DNA of 63,554 nucleotides, counting the filler, from Dugesia japonica (lineage: Eukaryota): NCBI GenBank assembly GCA_001938525.1. It is 5 parts of 5 records of this genome, joined end to end, with 100 filler letters (N's around TTAATTAATTAA, not from the genome) between each part and the next. Parts side by side here need not be neighbours in the genome. Positions count along the whole stretch, not along the records: positions 42,994 to 54,555 come from MQRL01636265.1; 4 more parts are not named here. One strand, 5' to 3'. Under the pieces are notes generated by a model. The model saw only the letters and a list, made by a program, of their open reading frames with translations, was not told the DNA's origin and ran no database searches. Position numbers and translations under genes: made by a program. Of the stretch, positions 5,801 to 61,130 are shown piece by piece; position 1 is the stretch's first letter; each line of letters starts with the position of its first letter.

Positions 5801-7664
5801 AATCTTTTTATTAAATTATTTTACAATTTCGATTATTTAATTGGAAATTTTTATGTCTTCTAACAAAAATTAATTTTTTTAAAAAAAAATTCATTCTAAC
5901 TTTAAATTTTAAATTATATAAATTTTTAAAATTAATTTATAGCAATCTAACTAATTTTTATATAAAATCTACTTTTGTCAGTAAAAATCCTCCGCGATCT
6001 ACTTTTTCTAAAAATTATGGATAAGAGAAGTTTTTTTAATAAAAATATTGTAACTATAACCTTTTCAAGCTGTACATAATGTTTTACACAGTATTTTTTG
6101 ATAATGTTGTACAAAAGTATTGACTAACATAATTTCTATGTATTAATGACCTCTGTTATCATATTTTTATCATATTGTTATCATATCGTCATCATATTGT
6201 TATCATATCTTCATCATATTGTTATCATATCGCCATCATATTGTTACCATATTATTATCACATAGTCATCATATTGTTATCATATTGTTATCATATCGTC
6301 ATCATATTGTTATCATATCTTCATATTGTTATCATATCGTCATCATATTGTTATCATATTGTTATCATATCTTCATCATATTGTTATCATATCGTCATCA
6401 TATTGTTACCATATTGTTATCATATTGTCATAATATTGTTATCATATTGTTATCATATCGTCATCATATTCTTATCATATTGTTATCATATCGTCATCAT
6501 ATTGTTATCATATTGTTATTATATTGCACAGCTTCACAATTAAGTGAAATGTTACGTAATAAATAAATAAAAATTGTTTGCATAAACTTAATTTGAGCAA
6601 AAAGATAAGTTTTTGCCAAAAGAAATTTAATCAGATTTTTTTCATTACACAGTAAACTTCAGTTAATCCAGATAAAGCAAATATTCAAATAAAATAAATT
6701 TTTATTAGATTGTCTGACTCACATGTTAAATTACTGTTTATCACTCGTGTTTTGCAATTTGCTTAAATTAACCAAAGTTTATTGTATTTGATTATTTCTG
6801 GCATTACTACAATTTGTTAGTTATTAGTTTTTTATAGGGACATCTGTTCATATGTACAATCCATGTACATCTCATTTTATGGTGTTAATTATGGAAATTG
6901 GAAAAGATAAGTCAAATATTATATTTTTTTGGCGATCGAAAAAGTCTTTATACGATCGAACGGTAGACCGCGATCGACGTTATTGACACCCCTGATCTAT
7001 AGGGTCTAAGATATTTTCCTGCCCCGGAAATCTCCTCCTCCGATATTTCCCCTCAACTTTACTGTGTCAACTTTGTGTATTAAATCGAACTAAAAACCAT
7101 TAAATATTAAAATTAAATATTCTAAATGTTTAATTTTAATTGGAGTTTTTTAATTTTATTAGCATTATGATTTTTGTAGAAAATTTGCTCACCATCGTTG
7201 CGTTTGATGGAATTTAGTCTATTTTGGGAAAATATGTTAATCGAAATCAACAAAAAATTCTCTATCGAATAGTGGGGTAGATAATCAAATTTGAGATAGT
7301 TGTTATTTCTTCGAAAATTTTTTTCTTGTTAGAAATGATCCGGAGGTCAATTGGTGTAATAATAACCAGTGTTAAAGAATTATTTTTGAAAATTTTCGAA
7401 ATTTGGATTGAAAATTTGAATTACAAATTAAAATATTTAAACAAAATGGACTTTCCCCGAATTCCATAAAAATTAAATTATTTTTAATAAACTGGACATT
7501 GCAGAGGAAAGTTTTAATCAAAATCGACCATCCCGAGAATTTTTTTACCAAAACTTATCAAAGTCAACTAAATTCGACCATTCCGAGGAAACGTTGGATA
7601 ATTTAAACCAAAATCAACCATTTAGTATTGCACACACACTATTAAACTATTAAATATAATTTCG

Positions 7665-11149: not shown

Positions 11150-11830
11150 ATTTATGGAGTCCAATACATTACAAGAGCATGTTTTTGTAACAAAAAAACA
11201 TTAACCGCGTTTCTCTTCAATTGTTCCTATCACTTCTGCTTTGTTAACTTCCGCATCATTGAAACTTTGTCTTTTTAGGAATCTTTAAACTTTTTCTCTC
11301 ACTTTACTCGTCACATNNNATTTCTCGGCCTCTTGAAGATATTAAAGCGATATCTCGTTTAATGAATGGCCCTGACCAACTCATCTACAGATGGAGCCCT
11401 GCCTTTTGGGTATTCTCTTCTTAGATTTTCATTTACTACTATGCTCTCAGAAAATATCTCGTCATTTTCATCACTATCCTCATTTACATCTACCGCATAC
11501 AATTTCTGTGCACATCCTTCTGATATGACCAATTTTACCACATCCAAAACATTTTGTTGGCATCTTGTCAGGACGATTTCTACTTAAATGTCCTTTCTTG
11601 TGGCAAGTCCACATTTCACTTTTGAACTTTTTGGACTCTTTTTTGTGTTCTCATAACTCTGGCATGTCCAACACTGTGTTTCTGTTCTTTTCGTAACCCT
11701 CTCGATATTTTGTCTCCTCTCTCCGGAACGTTCTCCACGTGTTACACCCACGTAACTCTTTACTACGTTAATAGGTTCTCTTCTTTCTATAATTTCAACT
11801 AATGAGTGTTTCTTTTATATCTTCTACTTT
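11150..11830 (-). mobile_element. Decayed LTR-retrotransposon gag/protease-like remnant
   Basis: Purine-rich coding-like minus strand broken by stops; degenerate CWTCQ zinc-knuckle-like word near 11660-11675; composition like the gypsy copy at 25776-27571. Confidence 0.4.
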
Positions 11831-42993: not shown

Positions 42994-43612
42994 AAGAAGA
43001 AGAAGAATTTTCAATATAGATAAAACGTAACCATGATCAGGTTCGAAATTTGAATAATAAAAAAATAAAGAAAATATAAGATTTTAATTAATGCTTTATA
43101 CTTTTATTTAAAATTAAAATGGATAGGTTTAACAGTTAGAAAAAACTGTGATAGTAGGAAATACTAATAATAGTAGCAATAATTTAGCAGGGTCAGGCAT
43201 GATCAATTTTGGGTCGTAGACATTTCTATTGGGTCTACACAGAAAAAAGACCATATCAAAAGATACTCCACAAAAAAGTAAAAACAAATATAAATAAATA
43301 ATATTCTTGGCGTATTTAAAAACTAGGGCATATCTTATCTTAATATTACAATAATTTTTTAAAAAAAGTTTTATAAATCCAAATTAATTGATTAAATGAA
43401 TTTTGATTAGGATTCAATTATTCCAGGCAACATTCAATTATGATGAAAACGCTGTAATTTTTATGAAAACAAAAACTAATTATAACTATTGAATTTCAAA
43501 AAAATTACAATAACATTATTTATTTTACAATTACAATTATTTTGAGAATAATATTTCATTAAAATAATAACTTCGATCAAAATGTTGTTTTGTTTTTTTC
43601 TTTTTTGGTAGA

Positions 43613-43648
43613 TATTCGAATTTTTTACTACTGTCTTCTTCAGGAATA
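43613..43648 (-). ncRNA. Minimal hammerhead motif (copy D), degenerate, in repeat about 43525-43650
   Basis: Minus strand TATTC-CTGAAGA-A-GAC AGTA GTA-AAAA-AT-TC-GAATA; stem I TATTC/GAATA; G12 mutated. Confidence 0.55.
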
Positions 43649-44359
43649 ACATTATTTTTATCAGAAATAAATAAATAAATAGAAATTGTGTGACACAAAT
43701 ACCTTGGAATTCGCTAAATGTTCATAAAACATAACTGACAAAATTATTTAAAAAAATTTATTAAATTAAAATTATTATTCAATGATTTTACAAATCTTAT
43801 NNNNNNNNNNNNNNNNNNNNNNNNNNNNNNNNNNNNNNNNNNNNNNNNNNNNNNNNNNNNNNNNNNNNNNNNNNNNNNNNNNNNNNNNNNNNNNNNNNNN
43901 NNNNNNNNNNNNNNNNNNNNNNNNNNNNNNNNNNNCTGAAAGTGAATTGCTGTTTCAGATTTTCCACTGTTCTACAATTATTCTGCTAAAATCCACTTCG
44001 AATAATTTTCTTTGCTTATAATACTTGTTAAACTAAAGAACCTTGTTCACAAAATTACGATGTTGAAAACTGAGACAATTTATTTATTACTTTCCTTGAA
44101 TTCTTGGATTCTAATTTTTTTCTTTAAAACTATATCTATGTGAATTGAAATCTATTTGTTTCAAAAAACTTTTATATATTACTTTTCTTTGTTTATTACT
44201 AATTTCCTGTGGAAATTTTAACAATAATTTATTGAACGTCAAGCGTTCCGCAAAACACTGATTAGGAAAATATAATTTAGTGATTCTGTAATCACTTTAA
44301 TATAATTTTATTTATTGAATTATTTGATCTTTAATTTTATAGTGATAATTTATTTGTAG

Positions 44360-47300
44360 AACCACCACAGTTTAAAAATTTACCTCAGTCTGATAACTGT
44401 ACTACATATTGTTCAAGTAAACAGCCTCATTTATTTCGATGTGAATTGAGTTCTGATTATTACACAACAAGAGATGTTTTAGTTGAAAAGTTTTGGCTGG
44501 TTAACAATATTAGACTTGATTCACTACCATACCACAGTTTATATTTTAAGGATGACACAGTATGTAAATTTTATGATATTGATTATTGAAAATAAATAAC
44601 TTTTTTAGATAGGTCTTAATCTAATGCCAGTAAAATCAAATATATCAGAATACGATGTTGCTTTGAAATTGTTGTTGAAAAATGCAAAACTAATTTGTCG
44701 AGTTAGATTATTATATCCTGGGTCAACAGACATGACCGATACTATATTGATTCGTGAAAATCGAATAATCTACGATACCTTTTCTGATTCATCAATAATG
44801 AATCATTTTGCTGCAGAAATAAAACTTGATTGGGAACCAGTTATTGGTATTAGATTTTTAATAATTTAAATTAATTAATAATGATAAATAAAATTAATTG
44901 TGTATGCATGTGTGTATAGAAAGACCTATACATTTTAAAAATTGAAATAAAAAATGAAAACCTTTTTAATCGATAAATTTAAAATAAAAAGAGAAAATAT
45001 TCGGTTGTAACATAATTTGCTATGATTTTTTAATAAAAATTTGTACATTTAAAAATAATTGTTATTTAGAACAATTATTTTTACAATAATAAAAAGTTAA
45101 TCAATAATATAACTTCCATCAGTGAATTGCTGTTTATCTTTTTAGCTAATTTTCTGCCTGCTTGACTATCATTTTTTGGAGTAGCCAGTACCTTGAAGGT
45201 CGAATGTGCCATTTCGAAACTTGCTGAATAAGTATTTATAGATACATGTAGTGATATTGATTAAAATATTCCAACGCCAACGAGCGTTTTTCCTAACAGT
45301 GTGAAATTGCTTAGCAGTACTCCAGGCCATTGCACCTTATCCGTATTCAGCATAAATATCTCGGACCATTTCTGCAACTTTTAGACCACAATTAGAAACG
45401 AACAAAAGTAGATGTCTAAAATGCTGTTTTTTTTATCTACTTGGCGTTGCATTTTTAATATCTCTAAGATTTAAATAAAATTTACTGATATAAAGTTACT
45501 GAGATTTCGTAGAGCAGAAAAAGGATTTCAAATAAATGTTAGTATTCAAAAAAATAGTGTGGTTAAACAAACTACAATTTACAATAAAAAAATCAAATCA
45601 CAGAAAAATAAATCCTACCGCTAAAATCAATTTTTACTGACTACTGTCTTAGAGCTCACTTTCGGAGCAATATGGCATTTATTTTTTAATCGGAGCTTGC
45701 ATATTTAATTTGATATCAATTTAACTACTTCAGCTATTTTATCTGATAAATAAAAGTCTGGAAAAGACGAAGCAAACTATTTTAGATTAAGAGGTTATGT
45801 AACACGTTTGTATTGATTTTCTAACTTTTTTATATGACTTTCTATAATCATCTTAATAGTGTAGTACGAAAAACTTTAGAAAATGCTTATCGTTAATTAT
45901 TGTAAATTTGTTAATACTGTTGGGGTTCCACCTGAGTTGAGTATCGAAAACCGGACGGCTGGAGAAAAACAACCCTCAGAGGACCCTTTCAAGAATTTAA
46001 CCTAAAGCCCCTAGTTTAGGTATTCAGCGTAGAGTGGTTGACCTCCTACTTCATGGGAGGTGCACACTCGTACACCTTTAGTTTGGGTTCATCGATTTCC
46101 CTTATAATCATAATAAATAAATTGAACAAAATTTAGTAAAGAATGTCTATTGAAATAACATTTACAGTTCCTCCAGAACACCAGGGTCTAACCACTGGGT
46201 AGGTTCTTCTAATATAAAATCGAAAACAGCATTATCGTCATTGTTATCCCATTTAAGCCAAGATGCGTTTCCTAGTTGCTGGGACAAGTCAGCTATGTAG
46301 TGTTTCAGAAAATTAATCTTATGCTGCAAGAGTCGCTGGGTTTGTTCTGCTAAACCTTGGGTTTGTTTGGCCAGATCGCTCTGTTTCTTTATAATTAAGT
46401 CAATTTTTGTAATCAATCTATTCCGCTGAGATAGGTGTTTTAAAAGGGCACGCTCTGTCTGACGTTGAGCGTGTCGTTCTATTAGTAGTTTCTGGATGAG
46501 ACGGTGACAGCGCCGGAAACTGATTGGTAGGTGAATACGGTGCACTAAATAATAAAGCATTAAAAAGTTTAACTCTGTTATGGAATTAATTCTTTTACCA
46601 GAAGACAACCCGAGGTATATTTATTTAAGACATGAAAACAATTTATTAATTAAAACAATAAATATGATATCACGGCCGCAGAGTTTGAGTCTCCTTATCT
46701 ATCATAAGTGGCTCTAAAGGCATTTTCCCCTTAGCCTGAGGATGTCATCTACCAGTTTATTCTCTCGGTCATGGAAAGACTGGATAACTTCAGCGAAAGA
46801 TTCGAGCTGGGACTTCCATATGCGTTCTTGTGCGTGCGATGCCTCAGCTTCCTTACGGATGGCAGTGCACTTTGCTCGGTAGCGTTTTACNNNNNNNNNN
46901 NNNNNNNNNNNNNNNNNNNNNNNNNNNNNNNNNNNNNNNNNNNNNNNNNNNNNNNNNNNNTGGGTATCCTCACTGGATTCCCTCATTTTCTTGGTGGGAG
47001 CTATGTTTCGATTTAACGAAGAGTGCACTAAAAAGAAATATTACGATTAGATTTCGATTAACTCTTCATGACAAGACAATATTAACTGATACACAATCAC
47101 ACCAAATAAGGCTGACACTGAACAGAAATGTATGACCATATAAAGCAATGACTATTAAAAAAACAATATATAAACCGACCAAATGATTTAACAAGCAATA
47201 TTTATTTGTGATAACTAAAATCACTAAATGGCAGAATAGAGTAAAACAGAGATCCTCATTCTTTGTCAATATATACCTTAGAAACTAATGGAAACATCTC

Positions 47301-50300
47301 GACGAAACAGCTCGGGTCCGTCTCGTCGAGATGTTCGATTTTCCCTTTTATTAAGACATGAGCCAGCAGTTGTCTCAACTTGGCCGCTCTCCTTTCTTTG
47401 CGGATTAATCTTAGAGTATGGATGAATCCGGGCGTCATTATCTAAACTAGGCAATTATTATAAACAAATAAAAATATCACTCGTCATGGATACTTGACTG
47501 AGGGCACTGAAATGCAGAATGACAAACTAGTTCCATAAAGAAAATAAAGGGATACAGAAAATCTCCATAAATCTATGCTGTGATAATACCACGAGATTTA
47601 CCCACCATCCCTTTTTCAAAAGGAAACAGAATAATAATAATTTAACAGAAGAATAAAATCGAACTATATCAACTTATTATTAAAACACACATAAGATCAA
47701 TTTCAAGAATAGAGCAACAGTAATTAGTTTCGACCATTATTGCTCGGGTTCCGTGTTGGTCGTGAGATCTCGATTATCAGTGTTTTCCACACCCGTGGGT
47801 TCCTTAACACCCCAGAGCAAGTTTGTAATAAAAGCTTGCACTGCTGGGGGTGAGGCCAAAGGTTGATAACTGAAGGGGGTTACGTGGTTACGAACCTGCC
47901 CAGTCCAATTTTGGTGATTCTGTCTTTCCCCAAAAGTTTGGGCCTCTACGGGGGGCAAATTGGATCGGTCTAAAAGGATACCCGCATCTCGATGGTATGG
48001 ATTGATGTGGCGTCGAAAAATCATGCGACACGTCCGTCGATCGTAAACTCGTTCCCATATGACATCCACTAAAATTATAATACAAATAGACAATAATTAA
48101 AATGTTCACCCAATCTTAGCAAAGAGAATTAGATTAAAATCATAAAATTTATATTTTAATTCATTTAGATTTATAATGCAACAGCATATCCTCCGGGAGG
48201 TCAAGGACTCCATAATCTGGATAACCGAGGGGGGACATCCCCGAGATACACTGTAAATCCGTCTCATCTGGATGTTCCACCAACTCGGGGAAGAAAACAT
48301 GACCGGTCAGTCGCCGACAGCGTATGCGTTCTCGTAATTCAAATACACAACACAACACGGTCCGTAATTCCAGGACTAATATTTAATTTATTACCTAATA
48401 AAAATTAATAAATAGATTGAATCTTTCGAATAGGTTCAAAGTCAGAACAACCGCAACCAAGCAAAATATGTTTCACTATGATGTAACCCATTTAATCGCG
48501 TTACTGACCTAGCCATTAAGCCCAGTAGTATTTAGCAACAAAATATTCATTAAAATTAGAGTTGTCGATGGGGTGTGGTTTTGGNNNNNNNNNNNNNNNN
48601 NNNNNNNNNNNNNNNNNNNNNNNNNNNNNNNNNNNNNNNNNNNNNNNNNNNNNNNNNCTTTGTGCTGAAACGTCGTGTTTAAGCTACTTGTACTATTATT
48701 AACCAATTCGTTGAATTTAAAAACGGAATTTATCATTCCCTGTTCTTTAATAATATATACCATCTAGTATATGTTAATAACATTGCAGTGGTTGGTTTAA
48801 TAATTTAGTTAAATTTTAACTAATAATCGGGAGTATTTAATTTACCGCTCACATCGGTTGCTGAGTGATTTTACAACACGATCTTGAGCTGAATAAAGAT
48901 GATGTTAATTCACTTACATACACACACAAGGCAGAAAATACAACGAACTGGTATGCAATGACGATAGATAGCATATAGTTGACTAGTTGAACCGTATGGT
49001 TAATTTCCCGTTTAACATGCATGGCGAACAAAACAGATTTTGTTGTTGATTTGTGAGTGATATTTATGGTTGCGAAAACCCTTATTGGATTTTCTTTTTC
49101 CTTAATAGAGATCACACCTCTGCATTGTTTAGCCTACAACAATCTCGGTGTGTACTTTAATCTCGATAAATTATCATTTGACATATGCGGCTCAAATTTC
49201 ACTGTATCCATGTTATGAGAATGACATTGGTTTTATTTATTTGGTGACAGAATTCAGTAATCATTAAATAAAATAAATTGTGATAAAATTTCTATTACTA
49301 TAAATTAACATTTCATTCTTAATTTATACTAAAAATTATTTGCCAAAAGTTTTACTTANTGTGGAATATAGAATTACTGCAACGGTTTTGTAGACAAACA
49401 ATTGAATTCCTCTGATAGTCAGCTGATTTTCTTCCTTCCTTTTCTTGGCGGTATTTCTCGATTTATTTCTTCACTACTAGCTGATTATATTCCGTGAGTT
49501 AATCGACACACAATGTAATCTTACCAATTGGGTTTCCTTTAAAATAATAGTATGAATTGATTCTAACTGTGCGGAGTCACTAAGTCCAAATAAAAAATTC
49601 TTTGATGATTCTTTCGCTGAGTTTTATAGATCTTTATATAGGATTATTTCTGCATCCTCACTTCTTCCGGATTGGGTGTTTATTTTTAATTGAAATCATG
49701 GATTTCTGATTGAATCTCATGTCGACTTCTAGATTATTTCTACAATTTTCTGTGCTTCTAGTGGCAGCTATTTTTGGATCGTCAGGTGAGTTTTAGTTCT
49801 TTGTTTTATTTTTTAATTTTAGATTGCTATTGGAACAATCTTAAAATCTTTGCGAAGATCCTCTGGATGGTGGTAATATTCTCTAGTGTCAAAATTCTAA
49901 TGACCCAATCCAAATCCTTTCCAAATTTTCTTTAACCCAGCTCCGATGACTTCCCAACGCAAAGTTATTCGTATAAAACGAATTTTTTTTCTAATTTTAA
50001 TTTAGTTTTTTTCCAAATTAATTAACATTTTTTTTCTTGTAATTAGTTATTTTGATTAATGATTTTCTTCATTTTATTATTGATTTTGATAATTTCTTCT
50101 AATTAATGCGATCGACGTGAATCATCTTCATCCACCCAATTTTTCTATAACCATCTTTTCTGTTAATGGTACACCCCTTTAAGAGTTTGTACATAGTGTC
50201 TTGTTTATGATCGTAATTGTTTTCTTTCTCAGAGTGCCAGTTGTGATGCTCTTAATGTTCTTCTTTATGGATTGGAACTTTTGTGGCTTGACTTCATTAA

Positions 50301-52735
50301 CTGGGTGTTTCACCCCAACAATACTATAAATGAATTAATATAATTTTGTAAAATAAAACTAAAGAGTTGAATAAATTTTAAAAAATCACTGTTTTGTTTT
50401 CAATAACTATGCCCTCTACAAAGAAATTGTATTTCTACTTTGAATTTTGTTAATTTCACTATAAATTTCCTTTGATACAACATTAACTTATGTTGATCGT
50501 GTATTTGAACATTAGCAATTTCTATCAAAATTTTAAAAAATTAAACGTTTTAAAATGAAAAACTGGTTGTTTTATTTACAGTAACAAATTTTTAAAATAA
50601 ATTATTTATTTTAATTAAATAAATAAATATTTTATTAAAAAATTTATTTTTCTACGATTAAAATTTTTTATCTAGGTTAAAATTTATAAATGAAATAAAA
50701 CAAAATTAATAGCATCTAACTTTCTTAAGCTTTTAATAAAATATTCAAAAATTTTTACTCAAATAGAAGTAACAGCTAAAAAGAATAATTTTCTCAATAA
50801 TTTCAACGACATTATTATCGACAAGTAAATTATTTTTAAATAAGATATTTTAATTTATTAGGTCGGTGTATAAATTCGTGTGGTTATTTCAAGCCATAAT
50901 ACATTTTTATTTGTATTATTCAAAGTTAATCAGTTATATATTATTCTCAATTGCGCACTACTTATTCCCATTTGAAATAATCAAAGGATTTTGAAGCGAA
51001 GAATTCATCAAGCTAATTTTAAACCTCTGTTTTACTTTTGAAGGAAATCCCTGAAAGAGAATGCTTAAGGTTCCGGCAGAGATGATAATCCGATGTAACA
51101 AGATTGAAAGTGTAGGGCGGATGTGAGAGAGTCTACCAATGCAGCTCTTGAACTCCCGTTTTCGTTCGGTTTGTCATGCAAGAGAATGATTTGGTGTTTT
51201 AGACTCGTTAGTTTGAGCTGTATTGCTTTTTTTAGGCGTTGNNNNNNNNNNNNNNNNNNNNNNNNNNNNNNNNNNNNNNNNNNNNNNNNNNNNNNNNNNN
51301 NNNNNNNNNNNNNACATTCAATCATATGCACTGCATTGTCTGCCGCGAATGAAGATATGGCTTTGTTCAAAGTTTTGATTGCTTGCCAGGGCTAAGCTGT
51401 TGCTTCTTTTTTTTAAATTGACATATCATCGATGATTATATGAGATAGAAAGGATTGATGTTGCTACTGAGTATTGTGTTGTCATGTAAGTAAATAAGCA
51501 AAACAGTTGACAAGTTGAAATTTGTAGATGTTGGAAAAAATAATGTGCTATCTATACTCCCAGTTTCTGCACTTTGGTATAGATTTCATATGTCTGACAA
51601 TTTTTGAGTGATTCAATTCCATCTCTCTAGCCAACTCTCGAGTTGTTTGGTAAATATTTACATGAATTTATTCATTCAATCGATCTTCATCCAAGTCGGA
51701 AAGCCGTCTAGTGCGGGAAGTATTGCGCAGATCAAAATTGCTCTGCTTAACGCGTGAATACTACTTTTGCGCCGTCTTTTCAACAACAGAGTCTTTACCA
51801 TACACAGCACAAATGTTTTTTGGCGGCTTCAGTCGTTTTGCGATCTCGGTTGAATTCATAGAGAACGAAAAATGTACTGTTTTTTTTCAATCTGGCATTC
51901 AATCAGATTTGTCACAAAATTTTGTTATATTTTTATTTCCTAGATTTCTAATAAAAGAAACATGAGTCATAAGGTACATAACTTAATATTTGGTACTTGA
52001 AAATAATTTCAGACACTCAATTTCGAAATAGTTTTATTTTTTTACAAAAACCGCACAAATTTATGCACAAACCCAATGTTTAAAAATTTAGCCAGAATCG
52101 AAAAATTGTGTCCCTGTACATACAATGTAACCGGGAAAATCTTCAAGAAACAGTGAGAAATGTTATTGTTGATGATTATGACAAAGAAATCAACATATTA
52201 TAATTATTTATTTATAATTATTTGTGCTGCAACTATTGTAATTTTGTGATTAATTGTAATTAATAATATGGTTAATAGAAAATTTATTATTTTGTGAATT
52301 TTAAAAATTTTTATTAATTTAATTTTAATTATTTTTATTTTAATTCTTTTTATTTTTACAGTTGAAGGCAGTTATACGTGGATTATATTTCTAGCCATTG
52401 CTATTCTATTAATTGTAATGTTTATATTTTTACTAGTGAAATTCACATTAAAAGGTCAAGGAAAATCTTACCAAAGTAAGAAAATATAAAAGGAAATTAA
52501 TTGCTGTTTTTTTCATAATATTTATAATTACTGTTTGTTTATCGATATTAATATTTTTTTCATAATGATTAGTGATAAAGATGACAATTAACAGTTGATA
52601 TTTTGAGTAAACATAATAATAACTAACTTATTTTCAGTTGAAAAGCTGGAAATCGCTAAAGGATATAATCGAGATGAAGAAATTATTGAAAATGAAACAA
52701 TTAAGCCATATCTTCGATCGTTAGTTCTTAAATAA
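44360..52735 (+). CDS. Ig-domain single-pass membrane protein with L1CAM/neuroglian-like cytoplasmic tail (5'-partial; last exon uncertain)
   Basis: Phase-consistent exons 44360-44559, 44609-44846, 52362-52475, 52638-52719 (or read-through to TAA at 52735). Ig-like PPQF...LFRCEL...KFWLVNN...LICRV; TM WIIFLAIAILLIVMFIFLLV; tail GQGKSYQIEKLEIAKGYNRDEEIIENETIKPYLRS resembles L1-family GGKYxVxxKE...ETFGEYRS. Confidence 0.72.
45110..45450 (-). mobile_element. Mariner N-terminal HTH remnant
   Basis: GLKVAEMVRDIYAEYG*GAMAWSTAK and FSKFRNGTFDL. Confidence 0.7.
46162..46544 (-). CDS. Cassette ORF1, ~127 aa, coiled-coil-like hypothetical protein
   Basis: Body begins after TTATTTAG|TG CAC; a 29-nt intron (46545-46573) would create ATG; heptad-like LIIKKQSDLAKQTQGLAEQTQRLL; acidic Trp-containing tail; no internal stop. 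Confidence 0.6.
46714..47069 (-). CDS. Cassette ORF2, ~106 aa, coiled-coil-like hypothetical protein
   Basis: Micro-exon ATGAAGA (47069-47063), 35-nt GT-AG intron, body 47027-46714 in frame; frame holds across a 70-nt N run. Confidence 0.6.
47256..47438 (-). CDS. Cassette ORF3, 60 aa, EHxDETDxxC-family small protein
   Basis: LRQLLAHVLIKGKIEHLDETDPSCFVEMFPL aligns without gaps to ORF5; upstream micro-exon-like ATGACGA|GT at 47487-47481. Confidence 0.6.
   Translation of the reverse strand: MTPGFIHTLRLIRKERRAAKLRQLLAHVLIKGKIEHLDETDPSCFVEMFPLVSKVYIDKE
47737..48068 (-). CDS. Cassette ORF4, ~110 aa hypothetical protein
   Basis: GC-rich open body beginning after ATTTTAG|TG GAT (DVIWERVYDRRTCRMIFRRHINPYH...); a shorter overlapping frame is also open, so the frame is not certain. 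Confidence 0.5.
48161..48375 (-). CDS. Cassette ORF5, ~71 aa, EHxDETDxxC-family small protein
   Basis: Body after ATATTAG|; CRRLTGHVFFPELVEHPDETDLQCISGMSPL aligns to ORF3, with synonymous GAT/GAC differences at both Asp codons. Confidence 0.6.
49380..49960 (-). mobile_element. Possible RTE-like LINE AP-endonuclease remnant nested in the 4.4-kb element
   Basis: Highly decayed; SEDAEIILYKDL*NSAKESSKNFLFGL loosely recalls APE (APTxxSEDEEIEEFYEDL...IMGD). Confidence 0.3.
50858..52076 (-). mobile_element. Full-length decayed mariner (about 1.2 kb)
   Basis: TIRs TTAGGTCGGTGTATAAATTCGTGTGGTT / AACCGCACAAATTTATGCACAAACCCAA; NICAVYGKDSVVEKTAQK, QTTRELAREM, IILLHDK; many stops. Confidence 0.88.
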
Positions 52736-53699
52736 TTATTTGTTTGAAAATTCTTCACTTTAAAAAATCACAAATCGATAAATTTTATTAAGCTTTTAAT
52801 TTTTAAATAATTTCTAGGAAATTAATTTTTTCATAAATCTAATTACTTTCTTATAAAATGTACTGGTTAATAAATTTTTATAAAAAACTTTTTTCATGAA
52901 TATTTTCTATTTGTAGACAAAATGATTTTTAATTTAATTAAAGTATACCATGACGTTTTATATGATATTGCGATATCATTCGTCAAAATGTTTAATTTAT
53001 GATGATATTTTTATGAAATTTGTTTTTGGTAGAATTCTTTCCACTATTTAAAAATTTTTGTTTCTGTTTTAATAAGGATTCAATAAATATTGATGGTTTT
53101 AAACAACAAAATGAAACTTAACATTATCCCCAGTCAGCTTATCGAAACAAGCATGTTGGTATAAATTAAACATACCCTCTTTTTACCACAAACCCTGTTA
53201 ACGTCAAAAAAGGAAAGATTTTAATGTGGCAGTGTAAAGAGATTTTACTGTATTTTAGTATTTTCTTTATTTTTAATTTTTCTAAATTTCAACAGTAATT
53301 TTCCAAAAACTTCGATTATTTTAAAAAAAGTCATTAAGGCAATTAATTCATAAAATTTCCGTTATTTTCTATTTTAAATATTAACATTTAGATACAATAA
53401 CGTTTGTCAATTGAAATTTAAATACTGTTGTGTTATTTCAAACATTTGGTATTCTTTTATATTTGGCGAAATATTTTTAATAATGATTATCCATTTTATA
53501 GGTGATTATAAAGTTGTATTGAGCTTTATGTATAATTTAATTGACAATTATTAAATTTTGTTTAAATGTAACAATTAGTAACATGGATTTTCTTTTTGTT
53601 CTTATTATTCGTTTAAATAAAAATCAGCTTAGTTTATAAACTACAGAATGATTGATTTTTATTTTTGTTAATAACATAATAGTTTTCTTTGAAATTATG

Positions 53700-54230
53700 T
53701 ATTTTATTGGTTACAAATGAAAATAATGAATCCAGATCAAACATCAGAACAAATAAAGAACTTTCAAGACAAATAGTTCAAATGAAAAACTTTAATACGA
53801 TATATATCGAGAGAAAAAACCCAAAAAAGCTATAAAATTGAACTTTAAAGAAACGCATTTCTGGAAACGAACTAAAATAACCAACAATTATGTTTCATTA
53901 ACCAGAAAAAGAATTTAGAGGTTTTCAGAGAACTTTTTAGAAAAAATATAAACTATGATAGCAGTCGTGATTGAACAAACACGCGATAATGTCGTTGAAG
54001 TCAAAAATAACTATGAATTAGTTGGAAAGGAAAAACTAGGGGTTAGAATTTCTTATGATGTAGTTATTCAACGTGTACCCCAACCACTGGAACTGAAACC
54101 TGATATCAATTTACTACATGAGAATGCATTGCATATCCGTGGATTTGAATGAGGACAATCTATAAAATATTGTAATTTTAGACAAAAACCTTATGCCATG
54201 TTAACTGACTTTAAACCAATCAACCTCCAA
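53700..54230 (+). mobile_element. Possible L1/Tx1-type LINE ORF1 remnant
   Basis: Decayed coding-like stretch ...YELVGKEKLGVRISYDVVIQRVPQPLEL...; family assignment from recall only. Confidence 0.3.
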
Positions 54231-54555
54231 ACCTTCAAAATTTTTAATATATTATATTAGTATTTATTATTATTATGACTATTATTATACATATTTTTAA
54301 AATTCCAAATTCAATGTAAAAATCAATTTTTAAATTTCTTTTATAAATCCTTTTTATTTTTGCTGTGGGAAATTATGCGGTAGTTAGTAAAAGATAAATC
54401 AGAAAACTGTTTTTCCACACACGTTTTTATTTTACAATTATAAACAATTTCATTTTTAACACTGATTTATAGAAGCCAGTTTAAAAATATCATTTTCAAA
54501 CAATATTTACTTTTTTATTTTAATCCAAATTAGATGTTTTTGGAATAAAATTGAT

Positions 54556-60255: not shown

Positions 60256-61130
60256 AAAAAACCCCACTTTTCTGGCCGACGAATTGATTCAAGTGACTTT
60301 TTTTATCTTCCAAGAAGAAAGGGTTTTTATCATGTAAGTAAACAATAGTCGGAGGCCGCATAATCTAGCGAGTACCCTGAATGAATCAAAATATCCCAGG
60401 TCCGTTGCAGAAGTTTCTGTTGGGTGTCCAAAGACAAGTGGGATCTAGCATTATTTTGATGAAACCTGATACTTTTTTTAGTCCACGTTTGGTTTATTGC
60501 TTCCTTTAAATAACTTGAACTATATCTCCAAATCAATAGTTTGGTTTTCAGACAAAGGCTCATAGTAAATGAATTTCTTGAAATTCCACCAAATGCATAA
60601 CATTTTCTTTCTAGGTTGTATACTGGCTTTAGCAACGGTTAATGGAAAATCTCCTGGCTTACACTGTAATCTCTTACGCTTAACATTATTACGTCATATC
60701 TATTTTTTGTTCCCGGTTACCATTTGCTATTCTTTATTATAGAATCGCAAGCAGAAATTTTGTCTGATATTTTTTCTCCGTTAATTCATGCGGCACCCAG
60801 ATATCGGCTTTGGAAGTAATTCCAAAATAACTGAATACTGTTGAATAATTAATATAAATTATTTCTCTAATCTCTTCAGTTGTTCTATGGAGATCCCTTT
60901 CAATTAGCACCAATGTTTTGTTACTTATCTTAATAAATTGTCTTGAACGTGTTTCATCGGTAATATTAAAGGTTTTCTGGAAAAAATCTATGAACCACTT
61001 ACGACACTTAGAATCATCAACATCACTCTCACCGCACACAGAATATATCTTTTTTATTGTTCTGAGAAGGAATTTTGCTCTTCCGCAAATAATAAAGCAT
61101 GATGTGCATAAAATCTTCTTTTCCATTTAA
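60256..61130 (-). mobile_element. Decayed mariner transposase
   Basis: KIYSVCGESDVDDSKCRKWF, DIWVPHELTEK (WVPHEL), FHQNNARSH, HSGYSLDYAASDYCL. Confidence 0.88.

Follow-up and report, generated by a model that had tools for sequence, protein, structure and literature searches.

Do two very small predicted proteins that share a motif belong to a real protein family, and if so, what kind of DNA carries them? The question arises from a 63,554-nucleotide stretch of Dugesia japonica DNA (GenBank assembly GCA_001938525.1; five parts joined by filler, hereafter the window), in which a sequence-only reading had noticed two paralogous micro-proteins encoded by the open reading frames (ORFs) ORF3 and ORF5, within the part taken from MQRL01636265.1 (positions 42,994 to 54,555). 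We find that both lie on the minus strand of a bounded, multi-copy element of 4.4 kb, and that they belong to a family of three proteins. Our reading of the whole, to which we give a probability of about 0.5, is that the element is a solo long terminal repeat (LTR) of Gypsy type with an array of accessory micro-genes, including ORF3 and ORF5 as duplicated regulators. Feature coordinates are collected in Table 1.

The motif HV-x6-EHxDETDxxC-x3-MxPL was confirmed letter for letter in both peptides. ORF3 and ORF5 align over 36 residues without a gap (Smith-Waterman score 71), and none of 20,000 shuffled controls, a check set beforehand, reached this score (mean 22.6, maximum 59). The gapless alignment described from the sequence is thus borne out. 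When the stop-to-stop peptides of the window are paired without overlap (810,720 pairs), 20 pairs outscore this one and 3 others tie with it; judged by coordinates, most of these appear to fall in DNA repeats. In register over 51 codons the frames share 16 identical residues, 8 of which are encoded by different synonymous codons, and the bases agree at 25, 24 and 18 of the 51 first, second and third codon positions, respectively. Both Asp codons differ synonymously (GAC against GAT), as had been reported. The window holds no third copy of the motif.

A profile of the ORF3 and ORF5 peptides, which the sequence-only reading had suggested building, was run with HMMER against 1.84 billion representative proteins and returned two matches. 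One, P0002, was discarded as a translated repeat with five matches to one short stretch only. The other, P0001, is a 60-residue protein encoded on one 1,041-base Logan contig. It matches ORF3 end to end with 28/60 residues identical and no gaps, both proteins being 60 residues long from Met, and matches ORF5 at 14/50 residues, again without gaps and in the same register (pairwise E 2e-6). When P0001 alone was compared with all six-frame peptides of the window, ORF3 ranked first (E 1e-12) and ORF5 second (E 0.029). P0001 was retrieved with a profile built from both ORFs and so lacks full independence from ORF5, but where it matches ORF3 beyond the motif, over the full length, it is independent. 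P0001 aligns with ORF3 and ORF5 in one register and the three therefore form a protein family, which is very probably protein-coding. Nine residues are invariant (L9, R16, L24, H36, D38, E39, D41, P50 and L51). Searches of Pfam, PDB sequences, the ESM Atlas clusters and BFVD brought up nothing that matches the family.

Other copies of the element add to this. The residue at 47314, Pro42 in ORF3 here, is Leu elsewhere (1,692 of 1,981 depth units, 32 contigs); Leu is the state of ORF5 and P0001, and gives DLQC or DLDC as in ORF5. Together with the register that P0001 shares with both ORFs, this change supports the old duplication under protein-level selection that had been proposed. One DNA contig fuses an ORF5-like first half in frame to an ORF3-like second half (21-letter side), and one contig over ORF5 carries 15 differences and two gaps that cancel each other.

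The sequence-only reading took the motif as a protein-level signal, and this is supported, but it overlooked both the bounded mobile element and a perfect hairpin over the ORF3 motif. The hairpin ranks above every other local fold on either strand of the element (z -4.28), none of 200 shuffles being as stable. The motif could be kept chiefly for its fold in RNA or single-stranded DNA, for instance as the precursor of a small RNA or as a protein-binding stem like TAR (the trans-activation response element), with the likeness of the peptides partly a by-product. The stem pairs at 19/19 positions, beyond what the peptide constrains (only 2 of 3,000 synonymous-codon controls match it); in ORF5, 12/19 of these pairs are retained in register, which 3% of shuffled arms achieve, and one of them is changed on both sides; and the ORF3 variants listed from other copies lie in or beside the loop. 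However, the ORF5 fold is ordinary (z +0.39; 304 of 3,000 synonymous controls), the loop indels are net-zero and keep the frame, and Rfam gave no family at its gathering score (best E 1.6 and 4.9, far below the cut-offs). Moreover, identity to P0001 runs along all 60 residues, well outside the stem, and this end-to-end match the hairpin is unable to explain. We regard this account of the motif as unlikely. We speculate that the hairpin was selected as RNA, or that it was perfected late in the subfamily by template switching.

The element is bounded on both sides. Duplication lengths of 3 to 7 were tested at its ends, with a match at 4 only. Below, the type of a sequencing run (DNA or RNA) is a guess, runs consist of contigs, and depth does not equal copy number. 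Contigs of one DNA-type run cover the element in 30/30 bins, with contig joints at 45915-45920 and 50323. Part of the element is present in 20 of the 24 listed runs of one organism, none of these holders being listed as RNA, and in one DNA-type run 3,785 contigs match it, mostly at less than 95% likeness, as in a dispersed multi-copy family; the window itself holds no second copy. Depth is 35-700 over most of the body compared with 24,091 at the left end, 6,573 at the ORF2 core and 11,025 in the bin of 49762-49813. Ends, target duplication, copy number and depth together probably mark a solo LTR whose clade is large and split into many subfamilies. Judged by its sequence, the element is likely to be a solo LTR of Gypsy type. 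Going by the TATAAAA block near the right end, the LTR would be read in the plus direction, its unique 3′ region (U3) would span 4 kb and the cassette of minus-strand frames would be antisense. CCAAT-like sites occur near TATAAAA at 49972, where signals of U3, the repeat region (R) and the unique 5′ region (U5) were sought. We infer plus-strand sense with an antisense cassette; the reverse orientation could also apply.

TGT...ACA ends with a 4-bp duplication are also compatible with Ginger-type elements. The 4.4-kb unit might be a complete non-autonomous DNA element of this kind, or an integrated DNA virus fragment, bearing separate small genes, and some contigs do connect its right end to its left end. 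Against this, the inverted ends are just 9 bp, Pfam showed no transposase or viral gene, and the viral contigs gave nothing. We consider it improbable.

The end-to-end joins deserve a record of their own. In runs X1 and X4, contigs pass from 50323 at the right end to 45915/45920 at the left through 1-10 AT-rich letters, and also from 46653 to 45918. Such joins may be head-to-tail neighbours, nested insertions or circle junctions.

Returning to the probable solo LTR with its putative micro-genes, five to six short frames stand in a row on the minus strand, and GC content is 0.42-0.49 across ORF1-5 compared with 0.16-0.30 in the spacers. The ORF2 core has diverged among copies with its frame kept. 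Read by eye, the loose-end consensus X5 gives WKDQLESFAE where the window has WKSQLESFAE; over nine full codons these show 7 synonymous changes, 1 residue change and 1 unchanged codon. Loose ends X1 and X6 give WKAQVESFSE, likewise in frame. Over ORF4, one relative shows 31 differences and no gaps, and two contigs carry an in-frame insertion of 15 nt. Relatives rejoin the element at 46163-46179, the last codons of ORF1.

What might the proteins do? All three begin with a helix, which in ORF3 and P0001 is basic, and end in an acidic H(P/L)DE(T/L)D..PL tail; net charge of the N- and C-terminal parts is +8/-5 in ORF3, +2/-6 in ORF5 and +10/-7 in P0001. A shallow AlphaFold model, weak overall at a predicted local distance difference test score (pLDDT) of 67 and a predicted template modelling score (pTM) of 0.34, places helices at 3-31 and 42-48, with pLDDT 76-87 over the first 30 residues and low values beyond residue 30. 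A viral fold search of BFVD with this model found nothing below E 5. LxCxE is the pRb-binding motif of E7, E1A and large T. The conserved His and Cys had been proposed to bind metal, and a loose resemblance to pRb-binding motifs had been pointed out. The same proteins in the same element might then serve host counter-defence or cell-cycle docking, as an LxCxE-like pRb binder or a His/Cys metal site. In most copies D-L-x-C follows an acidic run, and Burro elements bear apoptosis- and ubiquitin-related domains (PMC6431247; here and below, papers are cited from the portions accessible to us). However, LxCxE occurs in 0/3 proteins, the Glu two residues past the Cys being missing, and P0001 has Tyr for His27 and Leu for Cys44, leaving His36 as the only invariant His/Cys ligand candidate. 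Since P0001 lacks the Cys and the first His, and LxCxE is in none of the three, both the metal-site and pRb ideas lose support; the remark that neither copy has a true LxCxE was right. We find this docking role quite unlikely. The LxCxE and zinc-binding mini-domain readings were rejected on these grounds, and so was a J-domain (HPD motif), as none of the three family members had a Pfam DnaJ match at E up to 10.

ORF2, ORF4, ORF5 and the hydrophobic frame begin without Met. All four minus-strand TTTAG/TG sites (the stroke marks the putative joint) open long frames in phase 1, of 109, 51, 103 and 126 codons. At least 50 codons are open in that phase after 1/11 of the TTTAG/TG sites in the rest of the window and after 10% of positions picked at random; the test was devised once the pattern had been noticed. 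ORF5 is preceded by a weaker TTAG in the same phase, whereas ORF3 has its acceptor-like site in phase 0. The Met-less starts would be accounted for by one leader that is joined to any of several last exons, and on the sequence pattern this has a nearly even chance of being correct. The conserved CCAAT-bearing block at 49762-49835 (depth 11,025 in bin 49700-49855; CCAAT in 4/4 listed loose ends behind 49813) is a candidate promoter for the cassette, and 49661 could be the first donor of its leader. RNA-type runs mirror the DNA depth profile; because of this, and of the position of the element inside a host intron, they say nothing on expression. That separate genes are instead resolved by spliced-leader trans-splicing, with the leader AUG as start codon, is very unlikely: flatworm leaders do carry an AUG (PMC9851317) and the ORF3 acceptor in phase 0 opens 61 codons, but phase 0 at the four TTTAG/TG sites is open for just 15, 0, 4 and 20 codons.

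Several results weigh against a Gypsy-type LTR with a spliced array of micro-genes. No internal gag-pol region, primer-binding site or polypurine tract could be linked to the element, and its identity as an LTR therefore rests on the ends and the target duplication. ORF1 and ORF3 have their own ATG and so need no splice. This copy yielded no strong phase-1 donor with an upstream ATG, the 15 of 38 contig joints that are listed include none of intron type, and one RNA-type contig spans the ORF5-ORF4 spacer unspliced. The N-terminal part of ORF5 is hardly basic (+2), and the family numbers three members only, with no function-bearing homologue found. Of the 10 substitutions listed within ORFs (40 of 509 rows), only 4 are synonymous. 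Other copies show breaks of frame, namely a net loss of 82 nt in ORF4 (two runs), a 1-nt shortfall at an ORF3/ORF5 joint and an insertion in the last codons of ORF2; these may be as expected of dead insertions, though they are no proof thereof.

With these points in mind, we propose the following. The solo LTR would be what remains of a large retrotransposon of Gypsy type, or of an endogenous relative that resembles a provirus, and its long U3 part would hold, on the opposite strand, an array of short accessory genes. An old duplication inside this array would have given rise to ORF3 and ORF5, which would form one family of about 60-70 residues. The N-terminal helix, with its strongly basic character in ORF3 and P0001, probably serves in nucleic-acid binding or nuclear targeting, and the acidic tail, H(P/L)DE(T/L)D(L)xxx-hydrophobic-xx-hydrophobic-xPL with its short amphipathic helix, probably docks a host protein. 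The likeliest job would be to regulate how the element itself is transcribed or its RNA is handled, in the way of Tat, Rev or HBZ; we hold a regulatory role for the cassette proteins tentatively. The genes would probably be produced as alternative last exons off one upstream leader, and a leader ending in A would complete an ATG at exons that start with TG. A bolder version is doubtful: an invertebrate Gypsy-type LTR with an antisense array, a choice of 3′ splice sites from one leader and, for several of its micro-proteins, start codons made at the joint, in which ORF3 and ORF5 would be Tat/TAR-like modules whose coding sequence forms the very stem that is regulated. Were it true, each solo LTR would be a multi-gene regulatory unit, present in very many copies across the host genome.

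Parts of this proposal have precedents. Burro elements of planarians exceed 30 kb in total, with internal parts of up to 25 kb and accessory ORFs (PMC6431247; also PMC11410931), and their LTRs must therefore be several kb long. As giant Gypsy-like elements, Burro/GYPSM1 resemble the present one in their AT-rich animal genome, very high copy number, long LTRs and accessory ORFs. They differ, as compared by description only, in that their accessory domains (MATH, BIR, BCL2, SUMO-like, env) belong to the polyprotein or immediately precede it, and the accessible portions describe no micro-gene array in an LTR. We infer from AT content, short introns and LTR size, at somewhat better than even odds, a fit with planarian Burro-type elements. 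Planarian LTR elements, BURRO1 among them, are silenced by PIWI and show tissue specificity (PMC8532177). In plants, the TRP28 antisense ORFs of Retand Gypsy elements are extra ORFs and proposed regulators, alike in being antisense if our orientation of the cassette is right; they sit between pol and the 3′ LTR, not within the LTR, and belong to plants, not animals (PMC11963269). The Pfam search of window proteins gave no TRP28 match. Complex retroviruses (HTLV antisense genes, Tat, Rev; PMC11963269) have small basic regulators and alternative 3′ acceptors off a shared leader, as is proposed here. No sequence or fold match links them to the present element, which differs in its 5-6 frames inside one LTR-like unit and in the internal duplication. 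MMTV sag and HIV nef are coding sequences in U3, as the cassette would be. Gypsy elements with extra or antisense ORFs, and retroviruses whose U3 region is coding, are already known. For a row of five to six micro-genes with an internal duplication wholly within one LTR-like unit, the literature searched gave no precedent, nor any description of the element, also by its terminal motifs (the original Burro paper, Repbase, supplements and subscription papers lie outside that search).

Database searches were equally sparing. Word-index protein searches, at near lengths only, gave nothing for ORF3, ORF5 or the C-terminal part of ORF2. Viral contigs held no locus for ORF2 or alignment A2, and metagenomes none for ORF2 or a 20-nt conserved stretch. 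ESM Atlas had no usable match for ORF4 or P0001, and Pfam gave sub-threshold matches only for 13 window proteins and the three family members. PDB sequences yielded no match, and exact look-up of 6 window proteins in a protein collection none.

Solo LTRs are usually viewed as non-coding promoters, and this one seems to bear several selected micro-genes common to many diverged copies. If these are expressed, an invertebrate retroelement would have the regulatory complexity of a complex retrovirus, and leftover LTRs could supply the host with small proteins. The ORF3/ORF5/P0001 family offers a concrete motif for testing this.

Table 1. Features of the element and its cassette (positions in the window; empty strand cells, none assigned)
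Feature	Position	Strand	Details
Mobile element, probably solo LTR	45918-50320		4,403 bp; starts TGTTGGGGT, ends ACCCCAACA; TG...CA, 9-bp inverted ends
Left target-site duplication ATAC	45914-45917	plus	4 bp
Right target-site duplication ATAC	50321-50324	plus	4 bp
Terminal block common to many diverged relatives	45918-46090		Sharp edge at 46090; depth 24,091 in bin 45956-46111; loose ends behind 46090/46091
ORF1	46162-46560	minus	132 aa from own ATG; TTTAG/TG at 46544 opens 126 codons; coiled-coil-type Pfam matches sub-threshold
ORF2	46714-47028	minus	104 codons, partly masked; core 46741-46787 common to many relatives
Hydrophobic frame	47066-47224	minus	52 codons after TTTAG/TG, no Met, GC 0.28; uncertain cassette member
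ORF3	47256-47438	minus	ATG start, 60 aa; basic helix (residues 3-31) and acidic motif tail; preceded by TTTAG/ATA
Perfect stem-loop	47292-47336	minus	19-bp stem, 7-nt loop; spans codons EHLDETDPSCFVEMF
ORF4	47737-48069	minus	110 codons after TTTAG/TG; no family found
ORF5 frame	48161-48376	minus	71 codons; ORF3 paralogue; in this copy the motif is not preceded by an ATG
Conserved block with CCAAT-like site	49762-49835		Candidate promoter of minus-strand cassette
Conserved block with TATAAAA at 49972, then T-rich stretch	49959-49986	plus	Candidate LTR TATA box or poly(A) signal

Two further minus-strand frames lie upstream of ORF5, at 48849-49133 (94 codons) and 48509-48763 (84 codons); the former has a hydrophobic stretch up to a strong TAT/GTAAGT donor at 48917, in phase 0. 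On the plus strand, the conserved block at 49776-49830 contains a donor look-alike, CAG/GTGAGT, and 38 nt further on a T-rich TTTTAG, a layout that resembles a very small plus-strand intron or a U1 site within an LTR R region.

The window is AT-rich, animal-type DNA (GC 0.26) with microsatellites and transposon remains; no tRNA genes were found. Two exon-like plus-strand frames, one at 44609-44846 and the other starting at 52362, connect in phase 1 across the element, which therefore probably lies in a 7.5-kb intron of a plus-strand membrane-protein gene. The exons of this host gene, apparently for a single-pass membrane protein, span 44335-44846 and 52362-52486 (plus), with a short intron near 44563-44612. 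The element is flanked by what we take to be mariner-like transposase remains at 45172-45336 and 51065-51370 (both minus), with more at 60330-61126. Further off, 33257-33514 (minus) is presumably an exon resembling a RasGAP domain, and we take as decayed frames a gag-like one with a zinc knuckle at 11362-11814 (minus), an integrase-like one at 26398-27283 (plus) and a hAT-like one at 19500-21065 (plus). Tandem arrays occupy 1-208 (13-nt units, each with TTAGG) and 6100-6596 (11-nt units).

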